64,000 nucleotides of DNA from Nemertoderma westbladi (GCA_032718475.1 JAUCBJ010000577.1:1-64000), one strand, 5' to 3'. Positions 1 through 50,900 are shown, counted from the stretch's first letter. Notes: a model not told the origin generated them from the letters alone. Translations and numbers: made by a program.

Positions 1-6
1 GACCCG

Positions 7-22395: not shown

Positions 22396-22502
22396 TAAAA
22401 TATACAAAGGTTTACTACAACTAGCAGTCAAGGACGTTACTTTCTTTTTTAATAGGGACAATTATGCTCAATTTGATGGTGTCGCTTTGGACTTTACGCT
22501 TG

Positions 22503-22947
22503 GGCTTTTAACTGCTGAGGACACCAAATCTCTGGATGGCACATTCACAAGAATGCTACGCCGGGTTCATTGTGTCAAGTACAATGCACACATCTCCAAC
22601 CAGACACTATATAACATTGGAGGTGTCTCATTGGTTCCCCCAAGCTTGACACTAGAACAAAATCGACAGCATTGCATTGCAGGCAGGACATTGCTTTCGC
22701 CGTGAGGACCAGCCAGTGCATAATCTTGTACTTTGGCAGCCTCATGGCGTGAATAAGCATGGTGGACAGCAGCCCATGACTTTCTTGAGACGCATCCTAA
22801 AGGACACTGGCCTTGAAGATGCGGATGATCTAGCAAATGTCATGGGTGATAGGGAGTTGTGGCGGTGCAATTTTGTTGACAAGCCGGCACAGCATTCTTA
22901 AAAATGCAGCTGCAATGCAGCATGCCGATCCTAGTAGTAGTAGTAGT
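22503..22947 (+). mobile_element. RTE 3' fragment, same family as 9707-10814
   Basis: LTAEDTKSLDGTFTRMLRRVHC; AGHCFRREDQP; (TAG)n tail; more - strand pieces at ~23500-23597 and ~24160-24615. Confidence 0.85.
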
Positions 22948-25273: not shown

Positions 25274-25536
25274 TAATCTAATGTTGAGGTAATTATCAAT
25301 AATTATCAAATATAAAATACAATTTATTATAACAATAAACTTTAATATTTATTAGAACTTATCTATTAGTTATTCTTACTGCATACTGTTTACAAATATA
25401 TAAATCAAATTATTAACTCTAAGGATCTCACTAGCAGATCAATCAAAATCTTTTTTCCTTCAGTACCGGTAGTTGTTATTATATAATCAATAATAAAAAG
25501 TCTTTTTACTAATCAAACAAAATACAGTACACTATA
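25274..25536 (-). repeat. Gypsy 3' LTR
   Basis: Direct repeat of 30282-30543. Confidence 0.93.
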
Positions 25537-29074: not shown

Positions 29075-30219
29075 GGTGTCTTTCTCCCCCCAGCAATCTC
29101 TGGGTCCCACTGGCAGTTTTCTCCCATACACTTAGTAGCATTCTTACCGAATTTCCAATGGTACCAACAAAATTTTCCATCAGGGTTGAAGGAACGTGAT
29201 TTGGAACGAGTTTGGCGGTAATCTCTTGGAGCTGATGGAGATCTCGAGGCGGAATATCTTTCTCGACTGTTCCCTGGATTACGACTCAATCCTCGTGAGC
29301 GATCGTCTTGAGTGGATAACCGGTTGATGGCATGGGTTAACTTGGTCATTTGCTGTGTGATATTACTGCACCAGAGTTCCATGGGGTATCCATCGGCTGC
29401 AGTGGCGCCTCCAGTTGTAGTTGTGTTGTTTGGATTAGGCCTAAACGTAGAGGTGTGGTTGATTGGAACTGTAACACTGTTTACATTGACTGGGCTGGTA
29501 TATATTTGTTCAACCATACGATCCGCAATTTCAGCGAGTTTTTCGGTTGAGATTCCATCAATTGATATTAGCGCTAAACGGACAGGTTCGGGTAAAATCT
29601 CCAAAAATCGTAGTTTAACTATGTTTTCGTTATGCGGAGCTAAACGTAACAGTTGTCTCAGGGCGACGGAGGGTTTGCGGTCGCCAAGGGTTTGATCCTG
29701 GAGCAGCTTCTTTAGTCGTCGTTCCTCACTGTCGTCAAAAAATTTTATTACACTGGATTTTATAGTTTCAAAATTATCGGAAACATGTACGCCGCTGTCG
29801 AAGATTACATTTGTTGGTAGGACTCTTAGCAGACTGTTTTTCATAACTTCTTCGGATGAGTTAGAGAGGATTTGTTCGATTTGATCAAACCAGATCCTTG
29901 AATCTTTTTCGTAGAAGTTCGGTAATTTCACCGTAATTGTAGTCGGATTCGGGATTAACGATGGGTTGCCACCAACGTGGGAAGGAGGTTTAGTTAGAGT
30001 CTGTTGGACGTGATTGAAAGCTAATTGAATAACGGATGGAAGTTCGCTATTAAGAGCGTCGAGGAGGTCCTGTTTAGTGGATGGCATTCCAGCAAAGTTG
30101 GGATCGTCTTGATGGATTAATTGTAACATGGCTTCTAATATAGCCTTGGGTTGGTTGTGTAAGTCTGGCATTATGATTATACGGTACCGGTCAGCCGGTG
30201 CTGATCTTCCAATTATCAC
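29065..30219 (-). CDS. gag: Gypsy Gag
   Basis: VKLPNFY..WF.QIE, LGDRKPS, CWYHWKFG.NA.KC..C motif; overlaps pol frame; true ATG probably near 30171. Confidence 0.92.
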   Translation of the reverse strand: MIIGRSAPADRYRIIIMPDLHNQPKAILEAMLQLIHQDDPNFAGMPSTKQDLLDALNSELPSVIQLAFNHVQQTLTKPPSHVGGNPSLIPNPTTITVKLPNFYEKDSRIWFDQIEQILSNSSEEVMKNSLLRVLPTNVIFDSGVHVSDNFETIKSSVIKFFDDSEERRLKKLLQDQTLGDRKPSVALRQLLRLAPHNENIVKLRFLEILPEPVRLALISIDGISTEKLAEIADRMVEQIYTSPVNVNSVTVPINHTSTFRPNPNNTTTTGGATAADGYPMELWCSNITQQMTKLTHAINRLSTQDDRSRGLSRNPGNSRERYSASRSPSAPRDYRQTRSKSRSFNPDGKFCWYHWKFGKNATKCMGENCQWDPEIAGGRKTPGN

Positions 30220-30281
30220 TTCGGTACACAGTTTTGTAGTAAGTTTTTTTTTATCTCAGTAGTTCGACGTCTGGGTCACCA

Positions 30282-30543
30282 TATATAATGTTGAGGTAAT
30301 TATCAATAATTATCAAATATAAAATACAATTTATTATAACAATAAACTTTAATATTTATTAGAACTTATCTATTAGTTATTCTTACTGCATACTGTTTAC
30401 AAATATATAAATCAAATTATTAACTCTAAGGATCTCACTAGCAGATCAATCAAAATCTTTTTTCCTTCAGTACCGGTAGTTGTTATTATATAATCAATAA
30501 TAAAAAGTCTTTTTACTAATCAAACAAAATACAGTACACTATA
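30282..30543 (-). repeat. Gypsy 5' LTR
   Basis: Direct repeat of 25274-25536, adjacent to PBS. Confidence 0.93.
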
Positions 30544-30904
30544 TGTGTAGAACGAATCGTTGGTAATTTGTGTTTTAATGTTATGTCAAAAACATAATTA
30601 ATATAATATGACATTTTACATACCCATATATTTTCGCACATTCCCATCTTCCCACATTCCTATCCTTTACAACATTCCCATCCTTTCCCAAATTCCCAAT
30701 TTTCCCATATTCCAATCTTCCCTCATTCCCATATTGCCATCTTCCCATAATCCCATCATTCGTGTATTGGCAAAAGCAATGGTAAAAGCACAGCGCGTAA
30801 ACCACCGTGACACGTTATACGTGAATGCTGCACTGTATGCATAGCTTGAAATTTATATCCTTTGATACCTATATGAGGAGAAGGGAGTATCATCATTCAA
30901 CAAC

Positions 30905-31003
30905 TATAGTTGTGGGGCGAGCCACGAAGTTGGCGGAGCCTTAGCGAATTGAAACTGTTAGGGGGTGGGTCAATTTATGCAAATAGTTGTCGTCGTCGTC
31001 GTT

Positions 31004-31035
<32 letters not shown>

Positions 31036-31892
31036 TACGATTTTGACATGCTAATAACTTTGTCGGATTTAAAGCTGCCAAGTTGAAAATTTGTAGGTAT
31101 CAATATGAGCAAAAGTTGAGATTTTTGAGAGACTTTCAGACACCATCAGTGCAATGGTCTCCCGCTAGAGGGCCACATGTCTAAACATTAAATGCCCTCC
31201 CATTTCTTTGCTTTTAATCCGTTTAAGCTGAAACTTGGCAGATATGTATTACACCATTAGCTGTGACTTTCAAAGGAGGCGAATCTATCTGCAGTTCTCC
31301 AGTCTGCCGCTAGAGGGCCAAAGGTCTGAAAGTGAAATCGTTGTCGTCGTTACGATTTTGACATGCTAATAACTTTGTCGGATTTAAAGCTGCCAAGTTG
31401 AAAATTTGTTTTGTTGAAAATCAGTTCAACAGTCACCCGCTATAGGACTACTTTATGCCTGAAAGTGAATAGATTCTCCCGTCTCATTGATTTTAATCAG
31501 TTTAAGCTGAATCTTGCCATATATTCTGGACCACATGCTGCGTCTTTGTGGGGGGGGGGGGGGGGGGGGAGATTTAATCGGTCTGCCGCTATACGACGAA
31601 ATTTCTGAAAGTGAGATCCGTCTCTCATTTCGTTATCCGTTATTCAAGATGAAACTTGGCCGATGTACGTATGTACTATTCATCCATAGGCTGTGTCTTT
31701 GTGGGGCTGGAGACCCTAATCCATCTTCAGTTCTCACTATACCGCTAGAGTCAGAAATGTCTGAATAGAAATGAAAGAGGTAAAAAGTGTTTAGGCGAAA
31801 TCTGCTTAAAATTTGCTAATACAGTAATACTTTCGAATTAGTACTTAAATTAAATTTAAGTCACGTGCTGCGCGAAGGCCCCACTTCGTGTT
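30905..31892 (+). mobile_element. Helentron/DINE-1-like non-autonomous element
   Basis: Subterminal inverted GTGGGGC...GCCCCAC, (GTC)n microsatellite, repeated TGAAA(A/C)TT(T)G core; same 3' end motif at ~24135-24165. Confidence 0.6.
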
Positions 31893-32991
31893 ATTCTATG
31901 TTTGTTTAGGGGTGTATTATAGAAAGTAGGGTTCCAGAATTTTTCAAATTATCAAGTACCTCAGATACTAGCAGACAGCTGATACAAATTTATCCAACCG
32001 TTTGTTTCTCGGAATACAAGAAATAGTAGGCCTATATATTTGTAGGCCTATTATTCTCAGACTCAGTGACAATAACAGGTACATACGGAAGGGTATTAAG
32101 GCGAACGCAATCTCATGTGCAAACGAATGATATTAATCTCAAGTTTTATTTTTCTATGTAACCAATAAAATCGAATCATCATAATCGCTTAGTACATATT
32201 TGCCATCATCAATATGCATTTATTTACTTACTATTGGTCCATCCCTTCAAATTCACTTTATACTATATACCTGTATGAACTTGACGATACTTCATAAACC
32301 TACAGAATTAATTATAATAGCGCATTATTATCTAAACATCGCACGTCTATCTTAGTTAGGGACACAACAGTGCGAAATTTCGTCGGATTTCAAACCTCTC
32401 CGCCAAACACTGGTTGGTGGTTCAAGGCTGTATCCACTCGGACACAGCGGACACTGGATGTGCCATGGCGCATGTTGGGTTTAAAACACCCCACATTATA
32501 TCAGATTGAAAGCAGAGCAGAGCTGAAAGCTGAAATAACTCAGACAATGTTTTGCGTTATCCCTGTCTTAATGGCAGAAGATAACCTTACATTTCTTTCA
32601 ATTTACAGAATTAGGCACTTCACGGCTGTACATCTTCATGTTCGGTGACAAGATTGGCCAATAAATCACGGATTTTAATGTTGCAATGTGATCAGACCCT
32701 CGTTTTACAAATTAGCTCATGAACTGTTGCTCAAGTTACAGTGTGAAGACATTTAGATGACGTCCCGAAACCCAGAAGACTTTTTAAAACCAATCCTCAC
32801 ATTCTATTGGCTGAGCTGGGAGCCTGGATCATGCACCCGTGATTTGGGCGTGTCCAAGAGCACCTTTCCTAGGGGTTTCAATTGATTTCATGATAACTTT
32901 AGCTTCTGCTTCAACATGGCAGATGAAATTGATTTTCCAATAAACTATTATCCTTCTAGTCACTACAGATGAATATCTTAAGAACGATAGT

Positions 32992-34599
32992 TGTTGCCGT
33001 TATCCCTACACCAGGGGGAAAAACGCCGATGCTGGAGACGTGACTTAACAGACCACCGAGCCCCGGCCAGTCACCGGATATTGATTGTGGGGAGGGAATA
33101 TTTTCTGAGATGCAAGTTTGCGGTTGATAAAAAGCTGCATTAGTTGGATATACTCTTTAATGTAACTTCCTATAGTTGAAACCTGTTCAACATCATTGAA
33201 ACTTGATTAAGAATAATTTTGGGCTTCCCCAAATCAATATACACCAAATATTCACAATAATTATACACGATAATATAAATCCCTACAGTATATTATTTAA
33301 TAACCCACTGTTTGCTCAGAATTTTAGCCTACCTAATGTTCCCCAGATTTTCCCTCGGTCCCAGTCTTAGTGCCGTAGTGTCGGTGTCGGTCGACCCTGT
33401 CGCGTGTCCGTTCCACCCCTCACGAACCCCGAAGGGAACGATCATCGAGAACCAGCACGGCTTGGCTAAGGGTCGGTCCAGTCGGTAGACTCTGTCGCGT
33501 ATCCGTACCACCCCTCTCGAACCCCGAAGGGTTCGGTCATCGAGAACCAGTACGGCTTGGCTAGGAGTCTGTCGTGTCGGTGGACCCGTTCGCGTGTCCG
33601 TTCCACCCCTCACGAACCCCGAAGGGTTCGATCATCGAGAACCAGAACGGCTTGGCTAGGGGTCCGTCGGTTCATCACAGAAACCCAACCACCTAGGCTT
33701 TCCGAGTCCGTTTCAGGCTCGTAGTCGCTTCGGCAGCCGAGAAACTGCTCCGAACAGTCGGTAGGCCAGTAGAGTCTAGTCGAGTCTAGTCCTTTGTCTT
33801 TCGACCCCATCGCGTGTCCGTTCCACCCCTCACGAACCCCGAAGGGTTCGATCATCGAGAACCAGTACGGCTTGGCTAAGGGGTCTGTCGTCGGTTCCCG
33901 TCGCAAATCCCAGTACAAGCAGTCAGCGTTCCGAGTTCTTTTCAGTCTCGTAGTAGCTGCCGTTGACCAGAGACCGCTAAGGGCAGTTCTCGTCAAACCC
34001 GTCCTGTGGCCAGCCCTTTCGCATGTCCGTCCCACCCCTCACGAACCCCGAAGGGATCGGTCATCGAGAACCAGTACGGCTTAGGTCAGGGGGCAGTCGT
34101 TAGTTGGCCACCCGTTCGCGTGTCCGCTCCACCCCTCACGAACCCCGGGGTTCGATCATCGAGAACCAGAACGGCTTGGCTACTAAGGGGCCGTCGGTGC
34201 CCGTCGCAAATCCCTGACACAAGCAGTCAGCGGTCCGAGTTCTTTTCAGTCTCGTAATGGCTGCTGTTGGCCAGGGACCGCTAAGGGCAGTCCTTGTCCT
34301 TTAGGCCTGGCGCATTACCAAATCCACCCCTACAGGCAGCAGGAAGTTGGCCAGGGCCTAATAGTACTCAGGCTAACCTGAATACTGCTTGCATTTTCCA
34401 TCCCCCCTGGCCCTTATAACTATGAAATTATTCCCGTACCCTGTAAGTTGCCCCAAAGTTCGCCCATAAATCGGCCCCAGTTTATTGAATGTGCCCAAAA
34501 CCCATGGTCCCGCACCCAGTAGTAATATCGGAATAATCAATTTTAATAAAATACAAAAATATTCAACTCGCGTTATGGAAAGTTGAAATACCGCGAACA
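32992..34599 (-). repeat. 3' LTR of BEL element 2 (~1.6 kb), six internal hairpin repeats
   Basis: Direct repeat of 43015-44474; PPT adjacent; left boundary less certain. Confidence 0.88.
33390..34262 (-). ncRNA. Array of predicted structured RNA elements within the LTR
   Basis: Six ~75-95-nt units with CGAACCC-UUCG-GGGUUCG and covarying stems, plus three CGAG..GAAA..CUCG hairpins. Confidence 0.6.
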
Positions 34600-34764
34600 G
34601 TCCCCCCCAATGACCTTCGTGAAGTCTGTCGGTCGATTGAGTTTGCGTAGGTCATTCCCAATATAAAAAACCCAAATTTAATATTGCATAGTTTTTAATT
34701 AATTTGGCCTAGAGTTTGTATAAAAATAAATGTTCGATAAATGTTCCTGGAATATCCCAATCCA

Positions 34765-37365
34765 CTATTTCTTTTTCTGGTACGCCTTTCGTCTCTTCGC
34801 CCGTCGACTCTCATCGATCGCTATGGCTGGTAGAGGAGCGTCAACATCCATTGTGAGTAACGCTTCGGCTTGTCTCCTGGCGGCTCTTCCTTTCGAAGGC
34901 ATCGGGATCATGTCGGTTCGTCTTTCCAACTCGGAGTTGCGTGCCTCTAGGAACCATTCTCCGTCACCGAACTCCTCTTTATACGAGTATAATCGTCTAA
35001 TGACTTCGAATGGGCCGAATAATCCAGCGCTCAGTAGCAGATCCACGTAATGGAAAGGTAGCGTGGCCGACGTGTGGAGGCGTTCCGGGAAGGAGAAATA
35101 TCCGCACGCCATCTCCTGCGCGATATTCCGAGCGTTTCTCCGAAACTTGGTCTTTAAGTGGCTGTTTGCGTATGTCTCAAACATGACCATATTGCCCATA
35201 GCGGTTACGTCTTTGGTAGGACATTTGATATAGCAGCGGGGGCTAGCGGAATGTCCACGGAAACCGCACGTGGTGCAGAGGTTATAAAGGATCGGACAGA
35301 CCGAAACGTCGTGGCCCGATATCGCGCAGTATGGGCAATAGAGTATCCCGAGGAGCTGGAGGCAAGAATCGGTAACCCGATTCCTTCTGCCGCGTGGGCA
35401 CTGCTCCGAGCCGCAGTCGCCGCATACCTCCAACTGCGTTTCTCGACCGGGGAATATCGGAATCGGGACGCCGACGTAGTATTCGAGTCGTCGGTCGCTC
35501 TTCGGAATATTCTCGGTGGTCGGTAGCCCGCGGAATGCTAGGCTTTTGCGTAGTATGTTCTCGCTCCGATAACCCTCTTTGTGTCCCGCTGGTCTCAACT
35601 CGGATGACCGTTTCTGGCGGTGGATCCATTCAGTTTGCTCGGCGTACCAACGGGTTAGTCGCATAGGGTCCTGAGGAACGGCGGGTGTAGTAGCCACCGC
35701 TGGTCGGCGAAGAGGTGCCGGGGTTTTCGACGGAGGGATACCGAGGAGATCGTCGGGTGTCGGCGCATCGCTGGGGCCCTCCTCGACCAGTATCGCTGAG
35801 CGGGTCCGTTGGTGGCTGGTACTCGGAATCTCCGACGACCAATCTTCGCCGCCCGGGAAAGGATACGGGGATAACCGTTGGCATATGTCGCCGAAGTCGC
35901 TCAATGCAGCTGTAGTGGCTACCTCTCTCGCGGGGCTACCGGAGCCGCGTGGGGTGTAGACGCCTGCTCTCTTCATCGGTTCGGCCGAGGCAACCCGTTT
36001 GGCGGCCGGTCCGTACGCGGCCTCCGGCTCGAGTTGTCGCTTCGGGGTGGAGAGTAGAACACCCTCGTTTAGCCATATCTCTTCCCCTTCCGAGGAGATC
36101 AGAGGCTCCTCCGCACCGAGAAGTTCGGTAATCGTAGGGATGTCGTAAGGTCCGCTCTCGTCCCAGGAATCGATAACGGCGGGCGTTTTTGATTCTCCCG
36201 GTGTAATGTTCTCGACCGCTTTAAACGCATGGTTTATAACCTCGTTCCAGTCGTAGTCGACGAAGGAAAGGGGGGCCGCCGTAATAAGGTTATCGAGAGT
36301 TTTACAGATAAACTTAGCGACGGTGTAGCACTCCATAACGACGTAAACGTAGTTCCGTCGATCAGGATTCTCCCACCTTTGGTGTATCGTCCACTTCCGA
36401 TCAACGTCCTTCCATCGACCCTCTCGCTCGCTCTTTATTTCCAATCCCGGGTATCCACCGTATATTTTATTATAGTCCCGGAATTTCTGGGGTTTGAAGT
36501 CGATACCGCCGTTTAGCACAGCGAGGTAGCCGATTCCGGATTTCGTCGGTCTCACTTCTTGGAATCCTCGCATGAATTCGGCGAATCTTAACCAGGCTAG
36601 CAGCGTTTGAGTGTCGATGCAATGGCTAAGTGCGTTGAGGTCGTTTCGTCGGTTTCTTCCTGCGGGAGCGTTCGCGTAGTCGTTCCGGACGTCCGCCTTG
36701 ATATCCGACCCGATTTTAATGACGTCGAAGTCGAAGAGGATCTTTTGGATTTCCGGAGGCAGCAACCAGATCGCTCCGGCTGCCTGCACTTCCTGTCTGG
36801 GTGTCGGGAATATTCGGCACACCAGTACCAAACGATCCAGGGTTCCGAGGACGACGACTAAGGATCGACCATATTCTTTCGCCCCGTACTTTTCCTGGTA
36901 GTCGTCGCGGTTCTGGATAATCGATACGCGTTCCTCTCGAAGCGTCGCCGTACACTCCGACAGGTTTCCCCAGTGGGCGAGGTACGTACTCTTGTCGTCG
37001 ACGAAACTTTGACATCTCGCCAACGTAATCGCTTTCGATGTGGGCGTCGCATTTCCCTCGTTGTCGTAGATCAAACATCGGGATCTGTAGACGCTCTGCC
37101 GGAACGTTTCCCAAAATGACGAATCGTCCCCTCCGGTTGCCTTTGCGTTCCGAGTTCTTTTCAGTCTCGTACTAGCATCGGCTAACCGGAGGGCTCGTAG
37201 ATTCTTAGAATCCGGTCCCTCTCGCCCGGTGAATTTAATGACTCGCACGTTCTCATTTAGCAGGGTGCTCCAATTTGTATCAAAGTCAGGGGATCCGGGT
37301 TGCGAATATTCCAGTAGATCTATCGTGTTACGTAATTCGCCGATAATTTGGCGAACTGGGTCCAT
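34765..37365 (-). CDS. Accessory protein (866 aa): DEDDy/WRN-like 3'-5' exonuclease-like domain, disordered linker, zinc-knuckle module
   Basis: LIYDNEG (ExoI DxE), LPPEIQKILFDFDVIKIGSDIKAD (ExoII), CIDTQ, YVVME (ExoIII, D replaced by E); CPYC-x4-H-x4-C and CTTC-x4-H-x5-C; uninterrupted ATG-TAG ORF. Confidence 0.8.
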   Translation of the reverse strand: MDPVRQIIGELRNTIDLLEYSQPGSPDFDTNWSTLLNENVRVIKFTGREGPDSKNLRALRLADASTRLKRTRNAKATGGDDSSFWETFRQSVYRSRCLIYDNEGNATPTSKAITLARCQSFVDDKSTYLAHWGNLSECTATLREERVSIIQNRDDYQEKYGAKEYGRSLVVVLGTLDRLVLVCRIFPTPRQEVQAAGAIWLLPPEIQKILFDFDVIKIGSDIKADVRNDYANAPAGRNRRNDLNALSHCIDTQTLLAWLRFAEFMRGFQEVRPTKSGIGYLAVLNGGIDFKPQKFRDYNKIYGGYPGLEIKSEREGRWKDVDRKWTIHQRWENPDRRNYVYVVMECYTVAKFICKTLDNLITAAPLSFVDYDWNEVINHAFKAVENITPGESKTPAVIDSWDESGPYDIPTITELLGAEEPLISSEGEEIWLNEGVLLSTPKRQLEPEAAYGPAAKRVASAEPMKRAGVYTPRGSGSPAREVATTAALSDFGDICQRLSPYPFPGGEDWSSEIPSTSHQRTRSAILVEEGPSDAPTPDDLLGIPPSKTPAPLRRPAVATTPAVPQDPMRLTRWYAEQTEWIHRQKRSSELRPAGHKEGYRSENILRKSLAFRGLPTTENIPKSDRRLEYYVGVPIPIFPGRETQLEVCGDCGSEQCPRGRRNRVTDSCLQLLGILYCPYCAISGHDVSVCPILYNLCTTCGFRGHSASPRCYIKCPTKDVTAMGNMVMFETYANSHLKTKFRRNARNIAQEMACGYFSFPERLHTSATLPFHYVDLLLSAGLFGPFEVIRRLYSYKEEFGDGEWFLEARNSELERRTDMIPMPSKGRAARRQAEALLTMDVDAPLPAIAIDESRRAKRRKAYQKKK

Positions 37366-37904
37366 ATTTACGATTATATCCGTTACAAATTAGTTCAGTT
37401 AATTATAAGTCCAGAAAGTCTGAAACTATAGCGATAGCAGAATAATTCAGTTTTTTATTTAATTCAGTTTATTAAATAACATTGCTATATAGGCATCTAT
37501 CATCTTATTGCTAATACATTCAGCATTTACAGTTACTATAGCTATACATGATATCCAACCAGTTTTTTATGACTTTTTTGTCCTTTTTTTTCCAATTCTT
37601 TTCTTTGACCTTTTTTATACCTTTTTTTTGTCTTTTTTCATTTCATTATTATTTCATCTCATTTCATTTATTTCCACATATATTTCAACATTTATTTCCA
37701 CCATTTATTTCACATTTATTTATTTATTTCCACATCATCATTGGGTTTATAGCCCCCCGGCTATCATCATTGTTATAAGCGCAGCACCAGGGTGCGCATC
37801 ATTTCATTTTCATCAGTATACGCGTCATCATTCAGGTTTATAGTAGAGTTGTCTGATCCTTTTCATCGTTTCCAACTATATTCAATCATTTTCTTTGGTT
37901 AATC

Positions 37905-38340
37905 TTTGTCGTGGAAGGGGTGTTACGCGACAATCTGGGATCTACAGCTGGACTCGTTACACCGCCTACACCCCAAACTGCGCACGTAACGGACAATGAA
38001 GACGCTAGGAGTGAAGTCACGTGGATGCACCATGGACCCACCAGAATAACACTCCCAACAACATAAAGCTCAGTCGACGAAGTCATGTGGGATGGGGTTA
38101 CGCAACATTCTGGGATCTACAGCTGGACTCGTTACACCGCCTATGCCCCAAAATCCACGTAACGGTCCCACCAGAATAACGCGACTGAGAAACATAAAAC
38201 CCTCTATCGTCGAAGTCATGTGGATGCACCATGGACCCACCAGAATAACGGGATAGAGGGGGTGTTGCGCGGCAATCCGGGATCTACAGCTGGACTCGTT
38301 ACACCGCCTACGCCCCGAACTGCGCACGCAACGGACAACA
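37905..38340. repeat. Three ~170-bp composite repeats upstream of the accessory ORF
   Basis: GGGATCTACAGCTGGACTCGTTACACCGCCTA x3; GTGGATGCACCATGGACCCACCAGAATAAC x2 plus a partial copy. Confidence 0.85.
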
Positions 38341-38611
38341 TAACATACTGCAATGAATACAATGAATTCCACTTCAAATCTTTTCCATTTCCAATAATCC
38401 AATATCGTAGGTCCTGATGACCAAAATCAGGGTAAACTAAACATAAACGACCCTGCGTCAGTCGAAACATCTGCAGGGTGACGCTGGACTCCACATAACA
38501 CACGAGGAAACACAAATACCATTGCGTGGTTACAGTTGGTTTAAAGGGGGTCCATAATTCGTTGTCGATAAATCACAGTTTTATAAGAGTTTGTCAACAT
38601 GATGAGAAGGG

Positions 38612-39140
38612 TTACATGGGTTTGTAATTGTCACCAATGTCCACAGCAGGATCTTGAGTAGGGAACTTATCACCTCTTGTAGAATCACCACTGTCATTGC
38701 CTTCAAGAAGGCACAGCTTCTGGATAGGGCGTTGGTAGTGGCCCTTTGCCGTTCGTATCGTCACAGTCCTCGCAAGTCCGTCTTTGCTTGGGTGTATGGT
38801 CACGACCCGCGCCACAGGCCAGTGAACGCGGTCTTTGAGATCTTCTTTAACTAGTACCATGTCGCCAACTGCGACATTCCGGTAGGTGTTGTTCCATTTC
38901 CTCCTGGTCCGGAGGGTTATGAGGTACTCCTGGGCCCAAATTCTCCACCAATGCGCTGCCAACGCTTGGGCCTTTTTCCCGTTTGTATGTTTCGCGATCT
39001 CGCTGGGATCCGGGAACATGGTCTCTGGGAGAATGTGGGTTTTGGGTCTCCCCAGTAGGTGGTTAGGAGTGAGGGACTCAACTGAGGCGTTCGCCATCCG
39101 GGTATTACGGCAGATTAGTCCGTGCTCTCCCGTTAATGGT
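38612..39140 (-). pseudogene. Integrase C-terminal (DUF5641-like) remnant
   Basis: LTPNHLLG, WWRIWAQEYL..L..R.KW, GDMVLVKE, WPVARV, DGLARTV, RPIQKLCLL; out of frame with gag-protease. Confidence 0.85.
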
Positions 39141-42100
39141 GTCAATGTTATCAACGTCATTATTATCATCAACAATCTTATTAGCCACCCAAATCATGGG
39201 TACGCGCCAATGTCCGTCTTTGAACGTGGCCTGATCAAAAATGTTGGTACAATATTGATCTTCCTCGGACGGATTCTCGTCCTTCTCGGCAAACTCTCGG
39301 GTCTCCACATTAAAGCATCCGGTCATCTCCCGCTGGGTTCTCTCGGTTTCGAGAAATAAATCCTCATCGAGGTCTGTAGCTGAGCAATATCCCACGGAGG
39401 TTACATTCTCTTTAATCTGACATTTAGGAAGGTAGGTATAGGTGTCCGTAGTTTCCTCCTTAATGCCGCAGAGTGTCCATCCCATTATTGTTCGTTCAGC
39501 ATAAAATCCATCATCCTGGTTTATAGATCGAGCGATATCTCCGGTGGGGATGTGTAGTTCCGGTGTATCAAGTCCGATCAGTAGGGTGATACGGTTCACG
39601 TCCAACTGCGGACACCTCAGGTCTACATCGTCTCGGTCCAATTGTATGAGGGGGGCGTACTCGGCTGATTGTCGGAACCGCACCCGGAGGTCTGTGTGTA
39701 CCAAGGCGTTCTTGATGGTTAACTTAGCCGTTTCGTAGCCCTTCATCACTCCTTCCATCTGGAGTTGTACCTCCCCGGACTCTACTTCTCTGTTATCGGT
39801 GATGGTTTGTATGGGCCGTTTACAAGGTTCATATTCTAGGCCGAGTTGCTCGAGGAAGTCCCGGTCGATGATGGTTCCGTCAGACCCGTTATCGAGGAAC
39901 GCGAGTGTCGTTAAAGATTTGCCGACTCCTTGGATCCTTACTGGGATTACCTTTGCGAAAACCATGTAGCGGCGATTTATAAGATTAATCGTGGCCGAAA
40001 TATTGGTTACTTGTGGTGTATCGGTGGAGATTTTAAACGGGTTGGTTTCTCTCCGTTGGGTTGTCCGGGTTCCTTTGAAGATGTGGTTTGTTTCTCCTCT
40101 TCGCCTGGCTTCGATCCGAAAGGGGAGGGTAGTAAAATCGAAGTTCGCAGGGATGTGGAGGAGCGTGTGATGGCGTTGGTCGTTACAGACAGTACAGCAT
40201 GATCTTTGGTCGCACTCCCGAACATAGTGACCTGTTCCAAGACACCGGAAGCATCCTCGGTGTTTCATTATCGCCTCGAAGCGTGGGACGAGTTCGGCGA
40301 ACTGAAACTTTCTGCAGAATTCCACTTTGTGTTTCTCCCCACAGAAGAGACAGAGCAGGGAATTTGTGACGCCTTCCCTTTCGGGTGCCCAACTCGCGAG
40401 ATAACATGCCCATTCCTCGGCGGATGTCGGTTCCTCGTAGTCTTCGTCGTCGGAATCCTCGGCCATGGTAATGGCCATCGTACTTATCGGTGGGGGGCGG
40501 AATCTCGGTTTCGGAGGGGTTATCTTACTCCTGGAGTTGCTCTCTATTCCGTCCAACTTTGCGAGACTTTGTTTTGAAAACATCGAGTCATTCATGGCTT
40601 CGGAGATATCGTCCAGGAATGCCGACATTTCAAGGAAGCTAGGATCTCGATCTGGATGTCTGCGCCGGAGATCTACACATTTATAAGCCCACTTACTTTG
40701 TAGCCATCCGGGGAACTTCTTGGCGATCTGTCGGAGGTTTAGAATGTTGTTCACCTGGTCCTCCTTATTTAAGGGTTTCAGAGTATAATAGGCATCTTTC
40801 ATAGAGTCGGAGAATTCCTGTATGTTCTGTGGGTCCCCTAGTGATCCCGCGTCCTGTATCAGTCTCTCTAGAGTTTTATTAATTATAGTTCCGGTATTTC
40901 CGTATCTTTTGTCTAGAGTTTTCCATGCGTCATAGTATGCCTCATGAGAACCTCCTTCAAAACATGCAACAATTCTGCGTGGTTTGTCACCCAGGTATTG
41001 CGATAAATATACCAATTTCTGTGCGTCGGCTATGTCCGTTGATCCAATCTGCGCAAAGAACCGTTTCTTGAATCTGAGGTAATCGACGGGATCTCCTTCG
41101 AAGGTGCGAATCTCCATCTTCGGCATGGCAAGGCGGTTCTCCAACGCCCGGATGATGCTGACGTCATCTGAACTGGAGTGACTCGGAGGGTTATAGTTAT
41201 TGGCACTCACTCCCATTCTTGATGGATCAATAATAGGCGGAGTTTTAATAATGACGCGGCTGCGAGTTTGTGGTGTTGATGTAAATGGGTTGTTTGATCG
41301 GGGAGTGGCGTCCCGTTCCGAGTCCTTTTCAGGCTCGTACTTGGGTACACTCGCTGTCGTGGTGTTGGATGGGAAATAGGGTTCCTCATTCTTTAGCGTA
41401 GCCGGTGGGGGATGAAACACCGGAGCTTGTGCCGATAGCGTAGACTGTTTGGTAGGCGGGATCTCGAGTTTCGGAGGTTTCGTCACTGTTGGTGTAAATG
41501 ACTTTTCTAACTCCGGTATCGGAATTGGTTCATATTCCTGATCTATATCCCTTTCCCAGTCCTCGTAGAGTTGAATATCTCGTTCTATAAGTGCGGCCTC
41601 GTATTCCGCCAGTTTCGCAATATCTGCATTCTTTTTGTGAGTGAGAATCGCTTGGGCCTCGGCGTGTTGTTTACGCATTTCTGCTTCCCATTTACGTTGT
41701 TCGATCTCTTGTTTGGCCTCTCGTTCATGTTGTTCGATCTCTCGTTTGGCCTCTCGTTCACGTTGTTCGATCTCTCGTTTGGCCTCTTGTTCACGTTGTT
41801 CGATCTCTCGTTTGGCCTCTTGTTCACGTTGTTCGATCTCTCGTTGGGCCTCTTGTTCACGTTGTTCGATCTCCTGTCTGACCTCCTGTCTGCGTTGTTC
41901 GACCCGTCGTTCGACCTCTTGTTCGGCCTCTCGCTTTTGTGTTTCGGCGGCTAATACATCTTGCTCGGCTTGCAGTTGAATATACTCATCTTCCATCCGA
42001 GCTTTGAGGGCTAATGCCTTCCGTTCTCGCAGTTGGTCTCGGAGTGGCTGACCCCCTTGAGAGCTATGCGCTGAGCCGGATCTCTCGCTCCTAGCGCTGG

Positions 42101-42575
42101 AGTGCTGATTTCTAGCGGACCCCGTTCTTTTTCGATGTACTGCCGTCCTGATGCTGGAGGATCGTACTGATTCCGCGTCCGTTCTTTCAGCCCTCTGGTA
42201 GTACTGTTCCTCATAGCCTCTCACAAGGCTGAGGGTCCTCTGGTGTTGTTTGCGGAACCCATCTAGATGTACAACGTGTTCTTCCAACTTGGGGTAGTTT
42301 TCCTGATCGGTGGAGGGAACGAGATCTTGGTACGCCTGTATCATTCTTTCGTACCGCTGTAGGATATTTCGGATACTTTGAAGCTGAGTTTGTACCTCAT
42401 TGAGGGGGGTTTTGACTCCCTTGAGTTGTTTCTCCATCCGTTGATACGCTCGGGTTACTCCGCCTTTAAGGGCCCCTAACCGACGGGTCATGTTCTTGAC
42501 ATTTGGTACCTCGTCGGCTTCCGAGTCTGTGTGGTGATCCATCTCGTCGGTATCGGATACGTTATTTGTTGTCAT
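39105..42575 (-). CDS. gag: BEL/Pao Gag-protease (1156 aa), ending where RT should start
   Basis: MPKMEIRTFEGDP..F (DUF1759-like), three Cys/His knuckles ending HHTLLH, AFLDNGS protease, TIMGWTL; 11-aa coiled-coil repeats. Confidence 0.92.
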   Translation of the reverse strand: MTTNNVSDTDEMDHHTDSEADEVPNVKNMTRRLGALKGGVTRAYQRMEKQLKGVKTPLNEVQTQLQSIRNILQRYERMIQAYQDLVPSTDQENYPKLEEHVVHLDGFRKQHQRTLSLVRGYEEQYYQRAERTDAESVRSSSIRTAVHRKRTGSARNQHSSARSERSGSAHSSQGGQPLRDQLRERKALALKARMEDEYIQLQAEQDVLAAETQKREAEQEVERRVEQRRQEVRQEIEQREQEAQREIEQREQEAKREIEQREQEAKREIEQREREAKREIEQHEREAKQEIEQRKWEAEMRKQHAEAQAILTHKKNADIAKLAEYEAALIERDIQLYEDWERDIDQEYEPIPIPELEKSFTPTVTKPPKLEIPPTKQSTLSAQAPVFHPPPATLKNEEPYFPSNTTTASVPKYEPEKDSERDATPRSNNPFTSTPQTRSRVIIKTPPIIDPSRMGVSANNYNPPSHSSSDDVSIIRALENRLAMPKMEIRTFEGDPVDYLRFKKRFFAQIGSTDIADAQKLVYLSQYLGDKPRRIVACFEGGSHEAYYDAWKTLDKRYGNTGTIINKTLERLIQDAGSLGDPQNIQEFSDSMKDAYYTLKPLNKEDQVNNILNLRQIAKKFPGWLQSKWAYKCVDLRRRHPDRDPSFLEMSAFLDDISEAMNDSMFSKQSLAKLDGIESNSRSKITPPKPRFRPPPISTMAITMAEDSDDEDYEEPTSAEEWACYLASWAPEREGVTNSLLCLFCGEKHKVEFCRKFQFAELVPRFEAIMKHRGCFRCLGTGHYVRECDQRSCCTVCNDQRHHTLLHIPANFDFTTLPFRIEARRRGETNHIFKGTRTTQRRETNPFKISTDTPQVTNISATINLINRRYMVFAKVIPVRIQGVGKSLTTLAFLDNGSDGTIIDRDFLEQLGLEYEPCKRPIQTITDNREVESGEVQLQMEGVMKGYETAKLTIKNALVHTDLRVRFRQSAEYAPLIQLDRDDVDLRCPQLDVNRITLLIGLDTPELHIPTGDIARSINQDDGFYAERTIMGWTLCGIKEETTDTYTYLPKCQIKENVTSVGYCSATDLDEDLFLETERTQREMTGCFNVETREFAEKDENPSEEDQYCTNIFDQATFKDGHWRVPMIWVANKIVDDNNDVDNIDTINGRARTNLP

Positions 42576-42763
42576 TGTAACGCCTCGTCGATGGCTAGAT
42601 ACGCGATGTCGTAAAACAGTTCCTCGTAGGTATTGTACTCAGCTTGGACCACCCGAACAGTAATCCTGAATCGTCCAACGTTCGTTCCTTGTACCTCAAC
42701 TTCGACGTGCCAGATTCCTGGCTCAACTTGAATTATATCAATGGGTGTGATCGATACTTCCAT
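42572..42763 (-). CDS. Putative 63-aa upstream ORF overlapping the gag start (ATGA)
   Basis: ATG-initiated, protein-like composition; its TGA overlaps the gag ATG. Confidence 0.45.
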   Translation of the reverse strand: MEVSITPIDIIQVEPGIWHVEVEVQGTNVGRFRITVRVVQAEYNTYEELFYDIAYLAIDEALQ

Positions 42764-43014
42764 TCCCTGTTAACAACTCTCCAAATATGTGATCTGCCGA
42801 CTACGAGTTGGTTAGATCGAGTTTGTTGCTTAATTAAACCACGACTTTGTCTCAACTCAAATACCAGAGTTTCCTCGTAGTGGGTGCTGGCAAGCACGTA
42901 GAGAGTTTTTGAAGAGTATTGAAGGATTCTCAACTTCCACCAGTTGAAGTTGACCGTAATTATCCTTAATTTTGACACCCTGTCAAAATTAACCGCATGA
43001 ATTATTCTTAATTT

Positions 43015-44474
43015 TGTTGCCGTTATCCCAACACCAGGGGGGAAAAACGCTGATGCTGGAGACGTGACTTTACAGACCACTGAGTCCCGGCCAGTCACCG
43101 GATATTGATTTTGGAGAAGGAATGATTTCTGAGATGCAGGGTTGCGGTTGAGAAAAAGCTGCATTAGTTGGATATACTCTTTAATGTAACTGAACTCTGT
43201 TGAACCTTGTCAACAATATTGAACCCTGATTAAGAATAATTTTGGGCTTCCCCAAATCAATATACACCAAATATTCACAATAATTATACACGATAATATA
43301 AATCCCTACGGTATATTATTTAATAACCCACTGTTCGCTCAGAATTTTAGCCTACCTAATGTTCCCCAGATTTTCCCTCGGTCCCAGTCTTAGTGCCGTA
43401 GTGTCGGTGTCGGTCGACCCTGTCGCGTGTCTGTTCCACCCCTCACGAACCCCGAAGGGAACGATCATCGAGAACCAGCACGGCTTGGCTAAGGGTCGGT
43501 CCAGTCGGTAGACTCTGTCGCGTATCCGTACCACCGTACCGTCGGTTCATCACAGAAACCCAACCACCTAGGCTTTCCGAGTCCGTTTCAGGCTCGTAGT
43601 TGCTTCGGCAGCCGAGAAACTGCTCCGAACAGTCGGTAGGCCAGTAGAGTCTAGTCGAGTCTAGTCCTTTGTCTTTCGACCCCATCGCATGTCCGTTCCA
43701 CCTCTCACAAACCCCGAAGGGAACGATCATCGAGAACCAGTACGGCTTGGCTAAGGGGTCTGTCGTCGGTTCCCGTCGCAAATCCCAGTACAAGCAGTCA
43801 GCGTTCCGAGTTCTTTTCAGTCTCGTAGTAGCTGCCGTTGACCAGAGACCGCTAAGGGCAGTTCTCGTCAAACCCGTCCTGTGGCCAGCCCTTTCGCATG
43901 TCCGTCCCACCCCTCACAAACCCCGAAGGGATCGGTCATCGAGAACCAGTACGGCTTAGGTCAGGGGGCAGTCGTTAGTTGACCACCCGTTCGCGTGTCC
44001 GCTCCACCCCTCACGAACCCCGGGGTTCGATCATCGAGAACCAGAACGGCTTGGCTACTAAGGGGCCGTCGGTGCCCGTCGCAAATCCCTGACACAAGCA
44101 GTCAGCGGTCCGAGTTCTTTTCAGTCTCGTAATGGCTGCTGTTGGCCAGGGACCGCTAAGGGCAGTCCTTGTCCTTTAGGCCTGGCGCATTACCAAATCC
44201 ACCCCTACAGGCAGCAGGAAGTTGGCTAGGGCCTAATAGTACTCAGGCTAACCTGAATACTGCTTGCATTTTCCATCCCCCCTGGCCCTTATAACTATGA
44301 AATTATTCCCGTACCCTGTAAGTTGCCCCAAAGTTCGCCCATAAATCGCCCCCAGTTTATTGAATGTGCCCAAAACCCATGGTCCCGCACCCAGTAGTAA
44401 TATCGGAATAATCAATTTTAATAAAATACAAAAATATTCAACTCGCGTTATGGAAAGTTGAAATACCGCGAACA
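43015..44474 (-). repeat. 5' LTR of BEL element 2 (~1.46 kb; deletion across repeat units 2-3)
   Basis: Direct repeat of 32992-34599 with a deletion near 43533. Confidence 0.88.
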
Positions 44475-44973: not shown

Positions 44974-47900
44974 TGAGAGCATTCAGTGGATAATATCAAA
45001 GAATAACCTTACATTATTAACGTATCCTAAACTAATAATCGACGTGCCACCGAAACGAGCCCCCGAAGAAGATAATGACAATACAACGGTTGTCCCAGAA
45101 GATAATGGGATTCAATTTGGTGAGTCTGAAACCTGATTATTTTATGAAACTAATTAATTATCACAATTGATTGTCATTTTTTTTATTTTAATTTTTTTCA
45201 ATAAATTCATGCCAACAGCTATCTAGTTTCCATTCCTTGTATAATGGAGTTACCCGAACTCCTGTCTTCGTAACATTAACATTCCATTATTATACTTGAC
45301 TAATATTGGTAATGCAGTTCTTGATCACCCCTTTTAGAATCCACCCTTATATTAGTCCGCATTCGCACTCAAGTCAAAACCAAACATCATGAAGTTGACA
45401 CATTGAAACACTGAAGATGAAATTACAATATTCTATAATAATGATATTTTTTTTAATTTATTATACTTTTGGCTTTTGAATGTTGTGTTTTGACTTGATT
45501 ATCGGAAGCCGGCCTAACATTTAATCCTAAATTGAAAACCAACACTTTGAACGCAACAATAATTAATTTCGAAAATAATCATGTAAAAATTGAATTATCT
45601 TGTTCTCATTTATGTTCTCATATTGAGATACACAGTGTTATTTCAAATAGAAAAAAGCTTTATAATGTTTATTATTAGTTAATATATTTAGTTAATAATT
45701 ATTGTTAATGTAGTTTTTGATGTACTAATGATCCTTACCGGTACCGGTACATTACGTCGCATTACCCCGACCCGAATTTGAACTCAAAGTAATTTTGTAT
45801 TTTTAGGATCCGTTTCATACGAATTTCAAGTTGTGGCTGATATTAGTGTTTCTTGTATGATAGACCCAGGAAACGTAAAGAGCCATCTGGCGGAAGGTTT
45901 ACGCATTGATATTGGGTACATTCAAAACGTGGACGTTAAGGTTTGACATGCTACACAATAATAAATGTACTCGACTGAATAATATTACCTATATTATTAC
46001 TATGCATTATAATATAAAATCAACTGCCCAAAATTTGCTGAGTTGTTTAATGTCTTGTAAATCTGGTTATGTTTTGGCGAAATGAGTGGTGGAACGTTTT
46101 ATTTATATTAAAGCATATTTCTGTCAGATTCCTATGAATGAGAGATTTGTGGTGGAAGTGTTGTACGCCTGCGGATTTCTCAAATTATCCTATAAATATA
46201 ATATATCATTCTATTTTGTTGTTATTTTTAGGTCAAGTTTCTGGCCAGCCGCGAAAGTCTCATAACTGTAGCGTTCACTCTAACTGCACCGGAAGTTGAG
46301 TTAGAAGAACTGGCTTTGAGGACTCACGAAAGCATTAAAAATCAGCAGCTCGAACTTCCTTGCCAGTTGGTGTCTGCACTAGGTTAGCGCACAAGAACTG
46401 CCTTGCCAGTTGGTGTCTGCACTAGGTTAGCGCACTGGAACTGCCTTACCAGTTGGTGTCTGCACTAGGTTAGCGCACAAGAACTGCCTTGCCAGTTGGT
46501 GTCTGCACTAGGTTAGCGCACTGGAACTGCCTTGCCAGTTGGTGTCTGCACTAGGTTAGCGCACTCGAACTGCCTTACCAGTTGGTGTCTGCACTAGGTT
46601 AGCGCACAAGAACTGCCTTGCCAGTTGGTGTCTGCACTAGGTTAGCGCACTGGAACTGCCTTGCCAGTTGGTGTCTGCACTAGGTTAGCGCACTCGAACT
46701 GCCTTACCAGTTGGTGTCTGCACTAGGTTAGCGCACAAGAACTGCCTTGCCAGTTGGTGTCTGCACTAGGTTAGCGCACTGGAACTGCCTTGCCAGTTGG
46801 TGTCTGCACTAGGTTAGCGCACTCGAACTGCCTTGCCAGTTGGTGTCTGCACTAGGTTAGTGCACAAGAACTGCCTTACCAGTTGGTGTCTGCACTAGGT
46901 TAGCGCACTCGAACTGCCTTGCCAGTTGGTGTCTGCACTAGGTTAGTGCACAAGAACTGCCTTACCAGTTGGTGTCTGCACTAGGTTAGCGCACTGGAAC
47001 TGCCTTGCCAGTTGGTGTCTGCACTAGGTTAGCGCACTCGAACTGCCTTGCCAGTTGGTGTCTGCACTAGGTTAGTGCACAAGAACTGCCTTACCAGTTG
47101 GTGTCTGCACTAGGTTAGCGCACTCGAACTGCCTTGCCAGTTGGTGTCTGCACTAGGTTAGCGCACTGGAACTGCCTTGCCAGTTGGTGTCTGCACTAGG
47201 TTAGTGCACAAGAACTGCCTTACCAGTTGGTGTCTGCACTAGGTTAGCGCACTCGAACTGCCTTGCCAGTTGGTGTCTGCACTAGGTTAGCGCACTCGAA
47301 CTGCCTTGCCTGTTGGTGTCTGAACTAGGTTAGCGCACTGGAACTGCCTTGCCAGTTGGTGTCTACACTAGGTTAGCGCACTCGAACTGCCTTGCCAGTT
47401 GGTGTCTGCACTAGGTTAGTGCACAAGAACTGCCTTACCAGTTGGTGTCTGCACTAGGTTAGCGCACTCGAACTGCCTTGCCAGTTGGTGTCTGCACTAG
47501 GTTAGCGCACTGGAACTGCCTTGCCAGTTGGTGTCTGCACTAGGTTAGCGCACTGGAACTGCCTTGCCAGTTGGTGTCTGCACTAGGTTAGCGCACTGGA
47601 ACTGCCTTGCCAGTTGTTGTCTGCACTAGGTTAGTGCACAAGAACTGCCTTACCAGTTGGTGTCTGCACTAGGTTAGCGCACTCGAACTGCCTTGCCAGT
47701 TGGTGTCTGCACTAGGTTAGCGCACTGGAACTGCCTTGCCAGTTGGTGTCTGCACTAGGTTAGTGCACATGAACTGCCTTACCAGTTGGTGTCTGCACTA
47801 GGTTAGCGCACTCGAACTGCCTTGCCAGTTGGTGTCTGCACTAGGTTAGCGCACTGGAACTGCCTTGCCAGTTGGTGTCTGCACTAGGTTAGCGCACTGG

Positions 47901-50900
47901 AACTGCCTTGCCAGTTGGTGTCTGCACTAGGTTAGCGCACTGGAACTGCCTTGCCAGTTGTTGTCTGCACTAGGTTAGTGCACAAGAACTGCCTTACCAG
48001 TTGGTGTCTGCACTAGGTTAGCGCACTCGAACTGCCTTGCCAGTTGGTGTCTGCACTAGGTTAGCGCACTCGAACTGCCTTGCCTATTGGTGTCTGAACT
48101 AGGTTAGCGCACTGGAACTGCCTTGCCAGTTGGTGTCTGCACTAGGTTAGCGCACTCGAACTGCCTTGCCAGTTGGTGTCTGCACTAGGTTAGTGCACAA
48201 GAACTGCCTTACCAGTTGGTGTCTGCACTAGGTTAGCGCACTCGAACTGCCTTGCCAGTTGGTGTCTGCACTAGGTTAGCGCACTGGAACTGCCTTGCCA
48301 GTTGGTGTCTGCACTAGGTTAGCGCACTGGAACTGCCTTGCCAGTTGTTGTCTGCACTAGGTTAGTGCACAAGAACTGCCTTACCAGTTGGTGTCTGCAC
48401 TAGGTTAGCGCACTCGAACTGCCTTGCCAGTTGGTGTCTGCACTAGGTTAGCGCACTGGAACTGCCTTGCCAGTTGGTGTCTGCACTAGGTTAGCGCACT
48501 GGAACTGCCTTGCCAGTTGTTATCTGCACTAGGTTAGCGCACTCGAACTGCCTTGCCAGTTGGTGTCTGCACTAGGTTAGCGCACACAAACTGCCTTACC
48601 AGTTGGTGTCTGCACTAGGTTAGCGCACTCGAACTGCCTTACCAGTTGGTGTCTGCACTAGGTTAGCGCACTCGAACTGCCTTACCAGTTGGTGTCTGCA
48701 CTAGGTTAGCGCACTCGAACTGCCTTGCCAGTTGGTGTCTGCACTAGGTTAGCGCACACGAACTGCCTTGCCAGTTGGTGTCTGCACTAGGTTAGCGCAC
48801 ACAAACTGCCTTACCAGTTGGTGTCTGCACTAGGTTAGCGCACTCGAACTGCCTTACCAGTTGGTGTCTGCACTAGGATATTTAACGTTGTTTTTATTGT
48901 TGCATGTTGTTAGAGCTATGAGTTCCATGATATTTCAAGTGTATATATTACCTTTGTATTACAACTTAAGAGATCTCAAAGTTTCTTCCAATATTTGTTT
49001 AGGAAGCCCCCAGTTCTCCTACATCAGTAGCTATGCCGAATCGGTAATAGTTCCCGTTCTCATTGCACTTATATGTCTCCTTCTTCTCATCCTCATTATC
49101 GTTGTATCTGTCGTGGCTTCGCGAAGAAGGGCTACTTACAGTGGAAGTCGTGGGCCTTCTCTACTTAACGCGGATGCAACGGACGATGTTTCGGAAGAAA
49201 AACCTTCCCCAGCGGTTGTAAAACGTGAACAAGTTAGTATCAATGCGTTTGATTTATTCTTTCTAAAAATGTAAGTTAGAGAATTTAAGAATGACGTAGC
49301 TATGTATATCTACCGTATACGGACTACCGGTACCATCTTTAGGTGACTGATATATGATAGTCATATACGCTCCGGTGTAAAGTGTATGTTTGTTCAAATT
49401 TATTGAACAAAAACATTATGAAGCGATAAAGTTTCTTTTTTTTAATATACACCCCATAATCGGGGTAAATGATTGTTTAATCATTATAAATAAAATTTAA
49501 ACAACATAGTTTAAAAATATCATGTTAAATTAGCACAGTTAATTTCAGCACAATTTCACAGCATTCGATAATGATTTCAAAGAGGGACGGTTGGGGCAGT
49601 CTAGCACGTGGTACAGGGTGATAATAGGCTGAGCCGCCGCAAAAATCTGCAGAAACACTGATCCGATCGATCGTGGAATGGTTCAGAGTTTGTGCATAAG
49701 TTGGAGTGCCAACCATGGGCCGTAGTTTTGGTTATGATGGCGGATCTGTTGGAGGGCTCCTATCCAAGAGGAATTTATAAACGCCGGTCCATTTAAGAAG
49801 CCCTGGTTTATAAAATTACCATCACGCTCTAGTCCGTATTGTCTGTAGTCTTCAATTTTTTCGAGTTTGAAGACGTTCTGTGTTTTATCAATCATATCCT
49901 CACATCCTCAATGTTCCTTCATTTACGGCTCTGAGAGCCATCGTAGCTGGGGCAGTTTCTAAAACATTGATATGGCGGGTATCGTTCGACCTTTAACAAC
50001 AATACAACTTTTTCACTTACCACCCCCTTGAGACGGTCTTAAAATTAACTTTGCAACGCTCGGAGTTTGTTAAACAGTTAAGCACTTTGGGTCGACGGAA
50101 TTTTTTCCATGTAATTATCGCATGGGACAACATACCCTCTCCCATTATGTAGCTTTGTGTTTTGCAATGTAATTTTTAAAAGCACCATTATTGCGATAAC
50201 ACAAGAGTTGACGGGTACCCACTACAGCGCTGTTGTACGCATTTAGATGTGGTAGACTTATTACGAATATTATTGTCTTGCAGTGGGACTTTGTTAGTAT
50301 TGCGAATAATTACGATAAATAGATTGATTGCTTATCATGTTATACTAATTGTGTGTATATCTAAGATAGAAGTTGGTAATTCCCCGGCCACGTTTATCTC
50401 TAAGAACTTACTTATAATGGTCTAGGCATGTGATTTAATTATATGATTAATTATTTAACTACCAATACATAGGTTTTATACCATTACAATTACGCTATTA
50501 ATTATTTATTTATTGAAAGTTAATTATAATTAAGAATTGTGATAGAAATAATTTATCAAACATACGAATTTATAATAATTTGCAACATTCAAAAAGAAAA
50601 AAAGCAAACAGTCGGCCGAAGCCGGAGGCGACCCGAAGGCTCCTCTTTCGATAGCTTCTACCCGAGGGTATGGGTGGGCGCTACTCCTATCCCAAGATTT
50701 GCTCCCAGTTATTTAACTGGTACTCATTAACAAATAATTAAAATTAAATTATAAAATAAAATTAAATTAAAAAAGTATTAAATGATAATTACATTCCATT
50801 ATCTACCAACTGCGTATATTGGTGGGGTTGCCACCCAACTCTCCTGGCATTTGTTACTTTTGTTTAAAAATAGCTTTTATCCGCTCTTTTAAGTTAAAAT

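Follow-up and report, generated by a model that had tools for sequence, protein, structure and literature searches.

In complex retroviruses, an extra basic RNA-binding protein is paired with structured RNA that is confined to unspliced transcripts. An accessory gene other than env is also carried by the Juno and Vesta LTR retrotransposons and the Terminons of bdelloid rotifers, in which an ORF3 behind pol codes for an RNase D-like DEDDy exonuclease; in the parts of the original account used here, its catalytic residues are intact and its function is given as unknown (PMC5408684; DEDDy ORF3s of bdelloids also appear in PMC6431247 and PMC6338049). Those carriers are of the gypsy and Penelope-like types, with LTRs of 159-551 nt. 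BEL/Pao elements, which are metazoan, are described as 4.2-10 kb long, with LTRs of 0.2-1.2 kb and an occasional env (PMC3118150, in part). Two cellular proteins offer further points of comparison: Trypanosoma brucei RNase D (TbRND; PDB 7C42/7C45; PMC7797062, in part) and Egalitarian, a host transport adaptor whose nuclease-like domain is described as binding stem-loops without its catalytic residues (PMC13186709, in part). Finally, Tf1-like elements of hosts ranging from fungi to vertebrates are described as priming reverse transcription with their own RNA (PMC4600332, in part). In the literature covered, outside which lie Repbase and most subscription journals, neither a DEDD ORF3 nor self-priming nor k-turn arrays were reported for BEL/Pao elements.

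The element described here occupies positions 32992-44474 of the window, by which we mean the whole 64,000-nt stretch of Nemertoderma westbladi DNA that was analysed. It lies on the minus strand, as do all of its features given below, and measures about 11.5 kb although most of pol is missing. A 5' LTR of 1460 nt (43015..44474) and a 3' LTR of 1608 nt (32992..34599), both of the TG...CA type, delimit the copy, and a polypurine tract, recognized from the sequence, adjoins the 3' LTR (34600..34609). Between the LTRs we found a DUF1759 gag, Cys-His knuckles, a protease and a DUF5641 integrase end. These features, together with similarity to BEL pols, bear out the assignment to BEL/Pao made in the initial annotation. 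As far as the cited sections describe them, the env-bearing BEL/Pao elements Tas and Cer7 share the gag domain, knuckles, protease, DUF5641 and LTR termini, and also have an extra ORF at the env position (PMC3118150, PMC554778). The copy differs from the usual BEL/Pao element in its length of 11.5 kb without most of pol, in an ORF3 that is not env-like and in the lack of a tRNA primer site. It is a pol-deleted member of a repeated BEL/Pao family. The two LTRs differ at 33 of 1453 aligned bases, and the mismatches are concentrated at the outer end of the 3' LTR (12 in 154 positions versus 10 in 933). When the flanks of the element were compared they differed, with no matching target-site duplication; the right flank is a host repeat that the left flank does not carry on. 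From the unmatched flanks and the clustered mismatches we infer that the copy is recombinant or rearranged.

Elsewhere in the window there are a gypsy-type element (25276-30543, minus strand) with 261-nt LTRs that are 99.6% identical and a PWWP domain at its integrase end, and an uninterrupted 545-aa otopetrin ORF (54854-56491, plus strand) beside a 70-bp satellite. Satellite arrays occupy 17635-21743 (17 bp), 46349-48877 (43 bp) and 52768-54461 (70 bp), and the 17-bp array yields several long spurious ORFs.

The leader contains a uORF of 63 codons (42572..42763) whose stop overlaps the gag start (ATGA), as the initial annotation had described in calling the two coupled. Among 5000 shuffled leaders, 35 produced such an ORF, a suggestive result for a putative coupling. 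The uORF had no significant match in Pfam and none in the nine ORF3-bearing loci introduced below. The gag-protease ORF (39105..42575; 1156 aa) holds a coiled-coil region built on a 33-nt repeat (41694-41924), DUF1759, Cys-His knuckles and an aspartyl protease, and it terminates at the pol deletion. What is left of pol is the C-terminal part of the integrase (38612..39104; DUF5641). The reverse transcriptase, RNase H (Peptidase_A17 model) and integrase core are absent from the element, and five BEL pol proteins searched against it matched the protease and the integrase end only. Thus, the copy lacks these three domains and is non-autonomous; all three are present in the ORF3-bearing relatives L005 and L006.

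ORF3 (34765..37365; 866 aa) had been presented as an intact ORF between pol and the 3' LTR. The frame is indeed open over its 866 codons, but pol is mostly deleted, the gag-protease frame ending at 39105, and the ORF itself is without the Exo I strand. The predicted protein comprises a DEDDy-type exonuclease-like domain lacking Exo I (about residues 140-355), a low-complexity linker, a Cys/His knuckle domain (about residues 645-790) and a basic tail. Searched alone, it had no match in Pfam, the PDB or a word-indexed protein database, and two more searches of the word index brought back nothing beyond a query member. An atlas search with residues 30-390 recovered DNA_pol_A_exo1 in 24 of 30 matches, which serves as a lead only, and the knuckle domain gave atlas scores below 0.9. 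An exhaustive protein search, however, returned seven remote homologs with a common invariant Cys/His pattern. Several of the seven have the N-terminal nuclease-like domain, and the knuckle domain is retained in members without it. A profile built from five homologs, without the window protein, matched ORF3 with an E value of 1e-19. The family profile matched EXD2 (E 1e-4) and, as its best PDB match, T. brucei RNase D, to which both domains aligned (E 7e-6). The similarity to TbRND is remote, being seen with the family profile and not with the single protein. One of 15 proteins scanned, the ORF3 of L007, passed the PF01612 cutoff (26.1 bits versus 23.6); none of the seven database homologs did. 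The knuckles resemble the RNA-binding fingers of nucleocapsid and Lin28, and Egalitarian was a weak match (E 0.21). AlphaFold models had mean pLDDT values of 34 and 45, that is, low confidence, and fold searches with them were uninformative. No relative of ORF3 was found in a viral contig collection. We also considered ORF3 as an env gene and rejected this, as no env family was matched and its domains are nuclease-like and knuckle-like. In another locus, L002, the homolog P0004 (124-2022) has the knuckle domain twice. On these alignments, ORF3 is a member of a family predicted to join a DEDDy 3'-5' exonuclease to Cys/His knuckles.

The same pair of domains is found in TbRND, in which a DEDD exonuclease is followed by CCHC-type fingers; unlike ORF3, TbRND is a cellular enzyme of the mitochondrion whose active site is intact in the cited account (PMC7797062, in part). 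The Exo I D-x-E pair is present in 7 of 8 aligned homologs and absent from the window ORF3. In the alignment, the Exo II Asp is present, and so is the Exo III Tyr-x3-acidic residue, with Glu at the last position. Glu is also found there in P0003 and P0005, and in the bdelloid proteins as described (PMC5408684, in part). The five-homolog profile matched residues 141-160 and 163-354, skipping about 20 of its positions (40-61) between the two segments. Two X4 contigs (records 19 and 20), one of them about 17% divergent (record 19), span the Exo I site without an insertion, indicating that the loss is shared among copies. Since the Exo I strand is missing, we predict that ORF3 is here a dead nuclease. 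That most homologs keep Exo I suggests that the usual role in the lineage may be catalytic. Compared by description with Juno, Vesta and the Terminons, whose active sites are intact, the window family thus has a BEL/Pao carrier, a large added Cys/His knuckle domain and no Exo I (PMC5408684, in part).

Sequence differences among copies indicate that ORF3 is maintained. The sample was small, 40 differences out of 808, chosen by read support; among them, 12 of 15 in ORF3 were synonymous, where neutrality would give a share of 0.29 (p 5e-5), and the rough dN/dS from the 15 differences is 0.10. In gag, 8 of 14 were synonymous (p 0.02), and in the integrase remnant 0 of 2. Purifying selection on ORF3 is therefore supported by the substitution pattern; neutrality, which the initial annotation would have taken as a refutation, does not fit it. 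Contig depth, summed in two runs of organism A (X1 and X3), was about 22,000-32,000 over ORF3 and about 15,000-28,000 over gag, as compared to about 20-36 in unique flanks; summed contig depth is no copy number, but the element family is highly repeated, and the depth of coverage of ORF3 is similar to that of gag.

Nor is the accessory ORF confined to this copy or its family; confinement to one copy was another outcome that would have gone against the initial annotation. A locus scan seeded with three of the seven homologs gave nine loci, and in six of them ORF3 lies behind a BEL/Pao pol or integrase end. In L004-L007, which represent two families of BEL elements, ORF3 comes after long gag-pol frames, and in L003 and L008 a BEL integrase end precedes it. 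Of the other three loci, two are on contigs too short for the context to be read, and in L001 no match to pol lies ahead of ORF3. The ORF3 homolog of L001 (8070-11182) has an intact Exo I, and nested repeats, both direct and inverted, flank it. L001 is possibly another element type, and its context shows signs of a gene moving between element types, as the bdelloid gene apparently does (PMC5408684, in part). A second BEL/Pao element in the window (1-7100, plus strand) carries pol at 1-3309 and a related extra ORF at 4436-5644 (E 4e-11) that has the knuckle domain only, without a nuclease domain; a tandem array of 24-36-nt units (3677-4038) lies between the two. The pols of different ORF3-bearing families are 27-31% identical, so that the gene either dates far back in BEL/Pao or was acquired repeatedly. 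Together, these observations uphold the initial annotation's view of a nuclease/RNA-binding accessory gene, here one that is multi-copy and present in other BEL elements. In two of the relatives, pol continues the frame of gag after a single TGA, which is followed by CTA (L006, 3132-3137; L007, 1577-1582). A TGA followed by CTA is a context that favours readthrough of the stop.

Three classes of repeat, A, B and C, accompany the coding regions. The A unit is 95 nt long and combines a k-turn pattern with a UUCG-capped stem, forming a long hairpin when folded in register. Six units are found in the 3' LTR (33386..34194; at 33386, 33481, 33576, 33796, 34005 and 34102) and four full units in the 5' LTR (43409..44069; at 43409, 43671, 43880 and 43977), so that the 3' LTR has the larger number. 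The six copies in the 3' LTR gave z-scores of -0.5, -3.2, -3.1, -3.1, +1.1 and -1.4. The k-turn pattern was found in 10 of 10 A units on the sense strand and in none on the antisense strand, with about 0.25 expected per shuffled element. The units have the kink-turn layout of a C helix, a 3-nt bulge, tandem G.A/A.G pairs and an NC helix, with C-G at -1b/-1n, the pair that most k-turns have there (PMC5579392, in part). The B motif matched at eight sites in the window against 0.00 expected: three in the 3' LTR (33700..34256; at 33700, 33929 and 34233), three in the 5' LTR (43575..44131; at 43575, 43804 and 44108), one in ORF3 (37148..37171; z -5.0) and one in gag (41316..41339; z -2.1). Thus, one hairpin does lie inside both large ORFs, as had been claimed, and the two copies are in different reading frames. 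The B1 unit (z +0.8), like the A units with z of -0.5 and +1.1, is not folded more stably than shuffles. A loop-E-like pattern was seen in six of the eight B copies, on the sense strand only. The outer stems of B differ in sequence among the LTR, gag and ORF3, yet still pair. Hairpin C, a third repeat class not previously recorded, is present in three copies of about 83 nt between the integrase end and ORF3 (37914..38338), with z-scores of -3.9 and -3.0 on the sense strand versus -0.6 and -0.8 on the antisense strand.

The percentage of paired positions observed for A and B was reached in 0 of 500 shuffles; for hairpin C, three pairs are changed on both sides, but 34 of 500 shuffles reached the observed value. 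Three to four pairs are altered on both sides in each of the classes A, B and C, and these counts overstate the support from covariation since the copies share ancestry. The k-turn and loop-E patterns were defined post hoc, after inspection of the sequence. Eight units refolded on the antisense strand were all weaker, the units having been picked for good folding, and a fixed 120-nt scan gave z of -2.5 or below in 2 of 116 sense windows versus 5 antisense windows. The folding signal thus emerges once units are folded in register and not in a fixed scan. The two matches in Rfam were at chance level and thus point to none of the known families of ribozymes or IRESs; hammerhead and twister folds were also considered and set aside on inspection by eye. 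We conclude that the repeats are real and, on the evidence of the shuffles and the sense-strand patterns, their behaving like RNA structures is supported. As regards RNA structure, this agrees with the structured arrays of the initial annotation; its description of LTRs of about 1.5 kb filled with two classes of hairpin holds for the lengths and for the two repeat classes, whereas structure is not uniform across the LTRs.

Array length varies among copies. A contig of run X5 (window 33005-34622, record 26) joins 33438 to 34153 and represents an LTR variant without about 715 nt of the A/B array. A perfect 12-bp leader hairpin (42966..42992) is also absent from some copies: at the joint 42955-43000 these lack the hairpin together with a near-duplicate of the primer-site sequence, and the 13-nt site is kept. 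That 13-nt site is at the primer-binding-site position (43000..43012), 2 nt past the LTR end, where no tRNA-type TGG site was found after the 5' LTR. It is complementary to a segment of the LTR (43229..43241), the putative 5' end of the RNA. A complement of this length was reached in 2 of 5000 shuffles and in 0 of 1295 AT-rich genomic 20-mers. The complementarity suggests self-priming of the Tf1 type; in Tf1 and Tj1, too, a primer site just past the 5' LTR is complementary to an internal LTR segment (PMC4600332, in part). By eye, L003 has a TGG-type site after its upstream repeat and no evident self-primer. A TATA-like box is located 23 nt upstream of 43229-43241 and ATTAAA 56 nt downstream. 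Transcription starting near 43241 would place the A and B arrays in U3, to be read only at the 3' end of the RNA. An alternative TATA-like word near 44285, noted by eye, would place them in a long R region, so that the arrays would be transcribed under either start. A candidate splice acceptor, TTTCAG (37420..37425), precedes the ORF3 start by 55 nt; the leader showed no strong splice donor, and no RNA sequencing runs with the element were found on record. Run X5 may be RNA, but this is a guess and the run was left out as a sign of expression.

Neither the accessory gene nor the set of structured repeats is a product of chance; both are real, and a partnership between ORF3 and the hairpins would be a reasonable inference. 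As a tentative working model, we favour ORF3 as an exonuclease-derived zinc-knuckle RNA-binding adaptor that would act on the element's own transcript, with the three predicted hairpin arrays marking that transcript so that ORF3 and host factors would handle it. With a start near 43241, the A/B arrays would become part of the 3' UTR in the genomic RNA and equally in a spliced mRNA for ORF3, and hairpin C and the B copy in gag, being upstream of the acceptor, would mark only unspliced RNA. The A units may fold as k-turns and recruit a host protein of the 15.5K/Snu13 type. ORF3 would bind through its knuckles and its dead nuclease fold, and would protect the genomic RNA or route it to assembly in the manner of Egalitarian, which likewise has an exonuclease-like domain and binds RNA stem-loops without catalysis; this is an analogy and not membership, Egalitarian having other domains and serving as a host adaptor (PMC13186709, in part). 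The RNA's own 5' end would prime reverse transcription, and this copy would depend on pol from another copy.

This arrangement recalls Rev/RRE and Tat/TAR in having an extra basic protein predicted to bind RNA and structured RNA, here hairpin C and the B copy in gag, that would be confined to unspliced transcripts; it shows no homology to those systems, has no env, and its ORF3 protein is much larger. The initial annotation had gone further, treating the protein and the hairpins as one Rev/RRE-like module. This is not supported so far: the B motif occurs in none of the nine ORF3-bearing loci, nor is there a k-turn array in them, these relatives being distant and most without whole LTRs, and no B motif was found in the viral contig collection either. 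The full version, in which a captured exonuclease has become an RNA adaptor on loop-E hairpins, a k-turn 3' UTR recruits 15.5K and priming is free of tRNA, all outside Retroviridae, seems to us quite improbable.

From their absence in the nine loci, the arrays look specific to the family while ORF3 is lineage-wide, which fits an account in which the two are independent, ORF3 being a decoy against silencing by host small RNAs and the hairpins binding host proteins only. The piRNA pathway includes two inactive derivatives of DEDD nucleases, Maelstrom and EXD1. A role in silencing has been floated for the rotifer DEDDy ORFs (PMC5408684, in part), and a ligand for k-turns is already available in the host (PMC5579392, in part). 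The nucleocapsid- and Lin28-like knuckles, however, fit direct binding of the element RNA equally well, and we regard independence as somewhat unlikely. It is also conceivable that ORF3 is a virion-associated chaperone or 3'-end trimmer for reverse transcription, active in most relatives and a second nucleocapsid-like protein here. TbRND, with the same domain pair, is described as binding RNA by its zinc fingers and trimming 3' ends (PMC7797062, in part), Exo I is intact in 7 of 8 homologs, and self-priming would call for processing of an RNA end. This role appears unlikely, as the lack of Exo I in the window family makes trimming improbable here and as L003 has its TGG-type site in place of an evident self-primer. 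A reading of the repeats as enhancer copies that work at the DNA level, or as by-products of template switching, with ORF3 a decaying captured passenger, would suit arrays that are probably in U3, where enhancer repeats are common, as well as the unequal unit number in the two LTRs, the few windows that stand out in the unbiased scan and the loss of Exo I, but it is already weakened by the synonymous excess in a frame open across 866 codons, by B stems that vary and yet pair in the LTR, gag and ORF3, and by the sense-only folding of hairpin C, and we hold it to be very doubtful.

The tentatively preferred adaptor model aside, the findings extend the range of accessory genes other than env to a set of BEL/Pao elements that are deeply diverged. 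If confirmed, both the presence of k-turn arrays in an LTR and priming without tRNA in BEL/Pao would be new. The family that joins an exonuclease to knuckles is unnamed, and its natural members include ones with the active site intact, ones predicted to be dead and ones without the nuclease, so that the role of DEDDy ORF3s in retroelements becomes directly testable.
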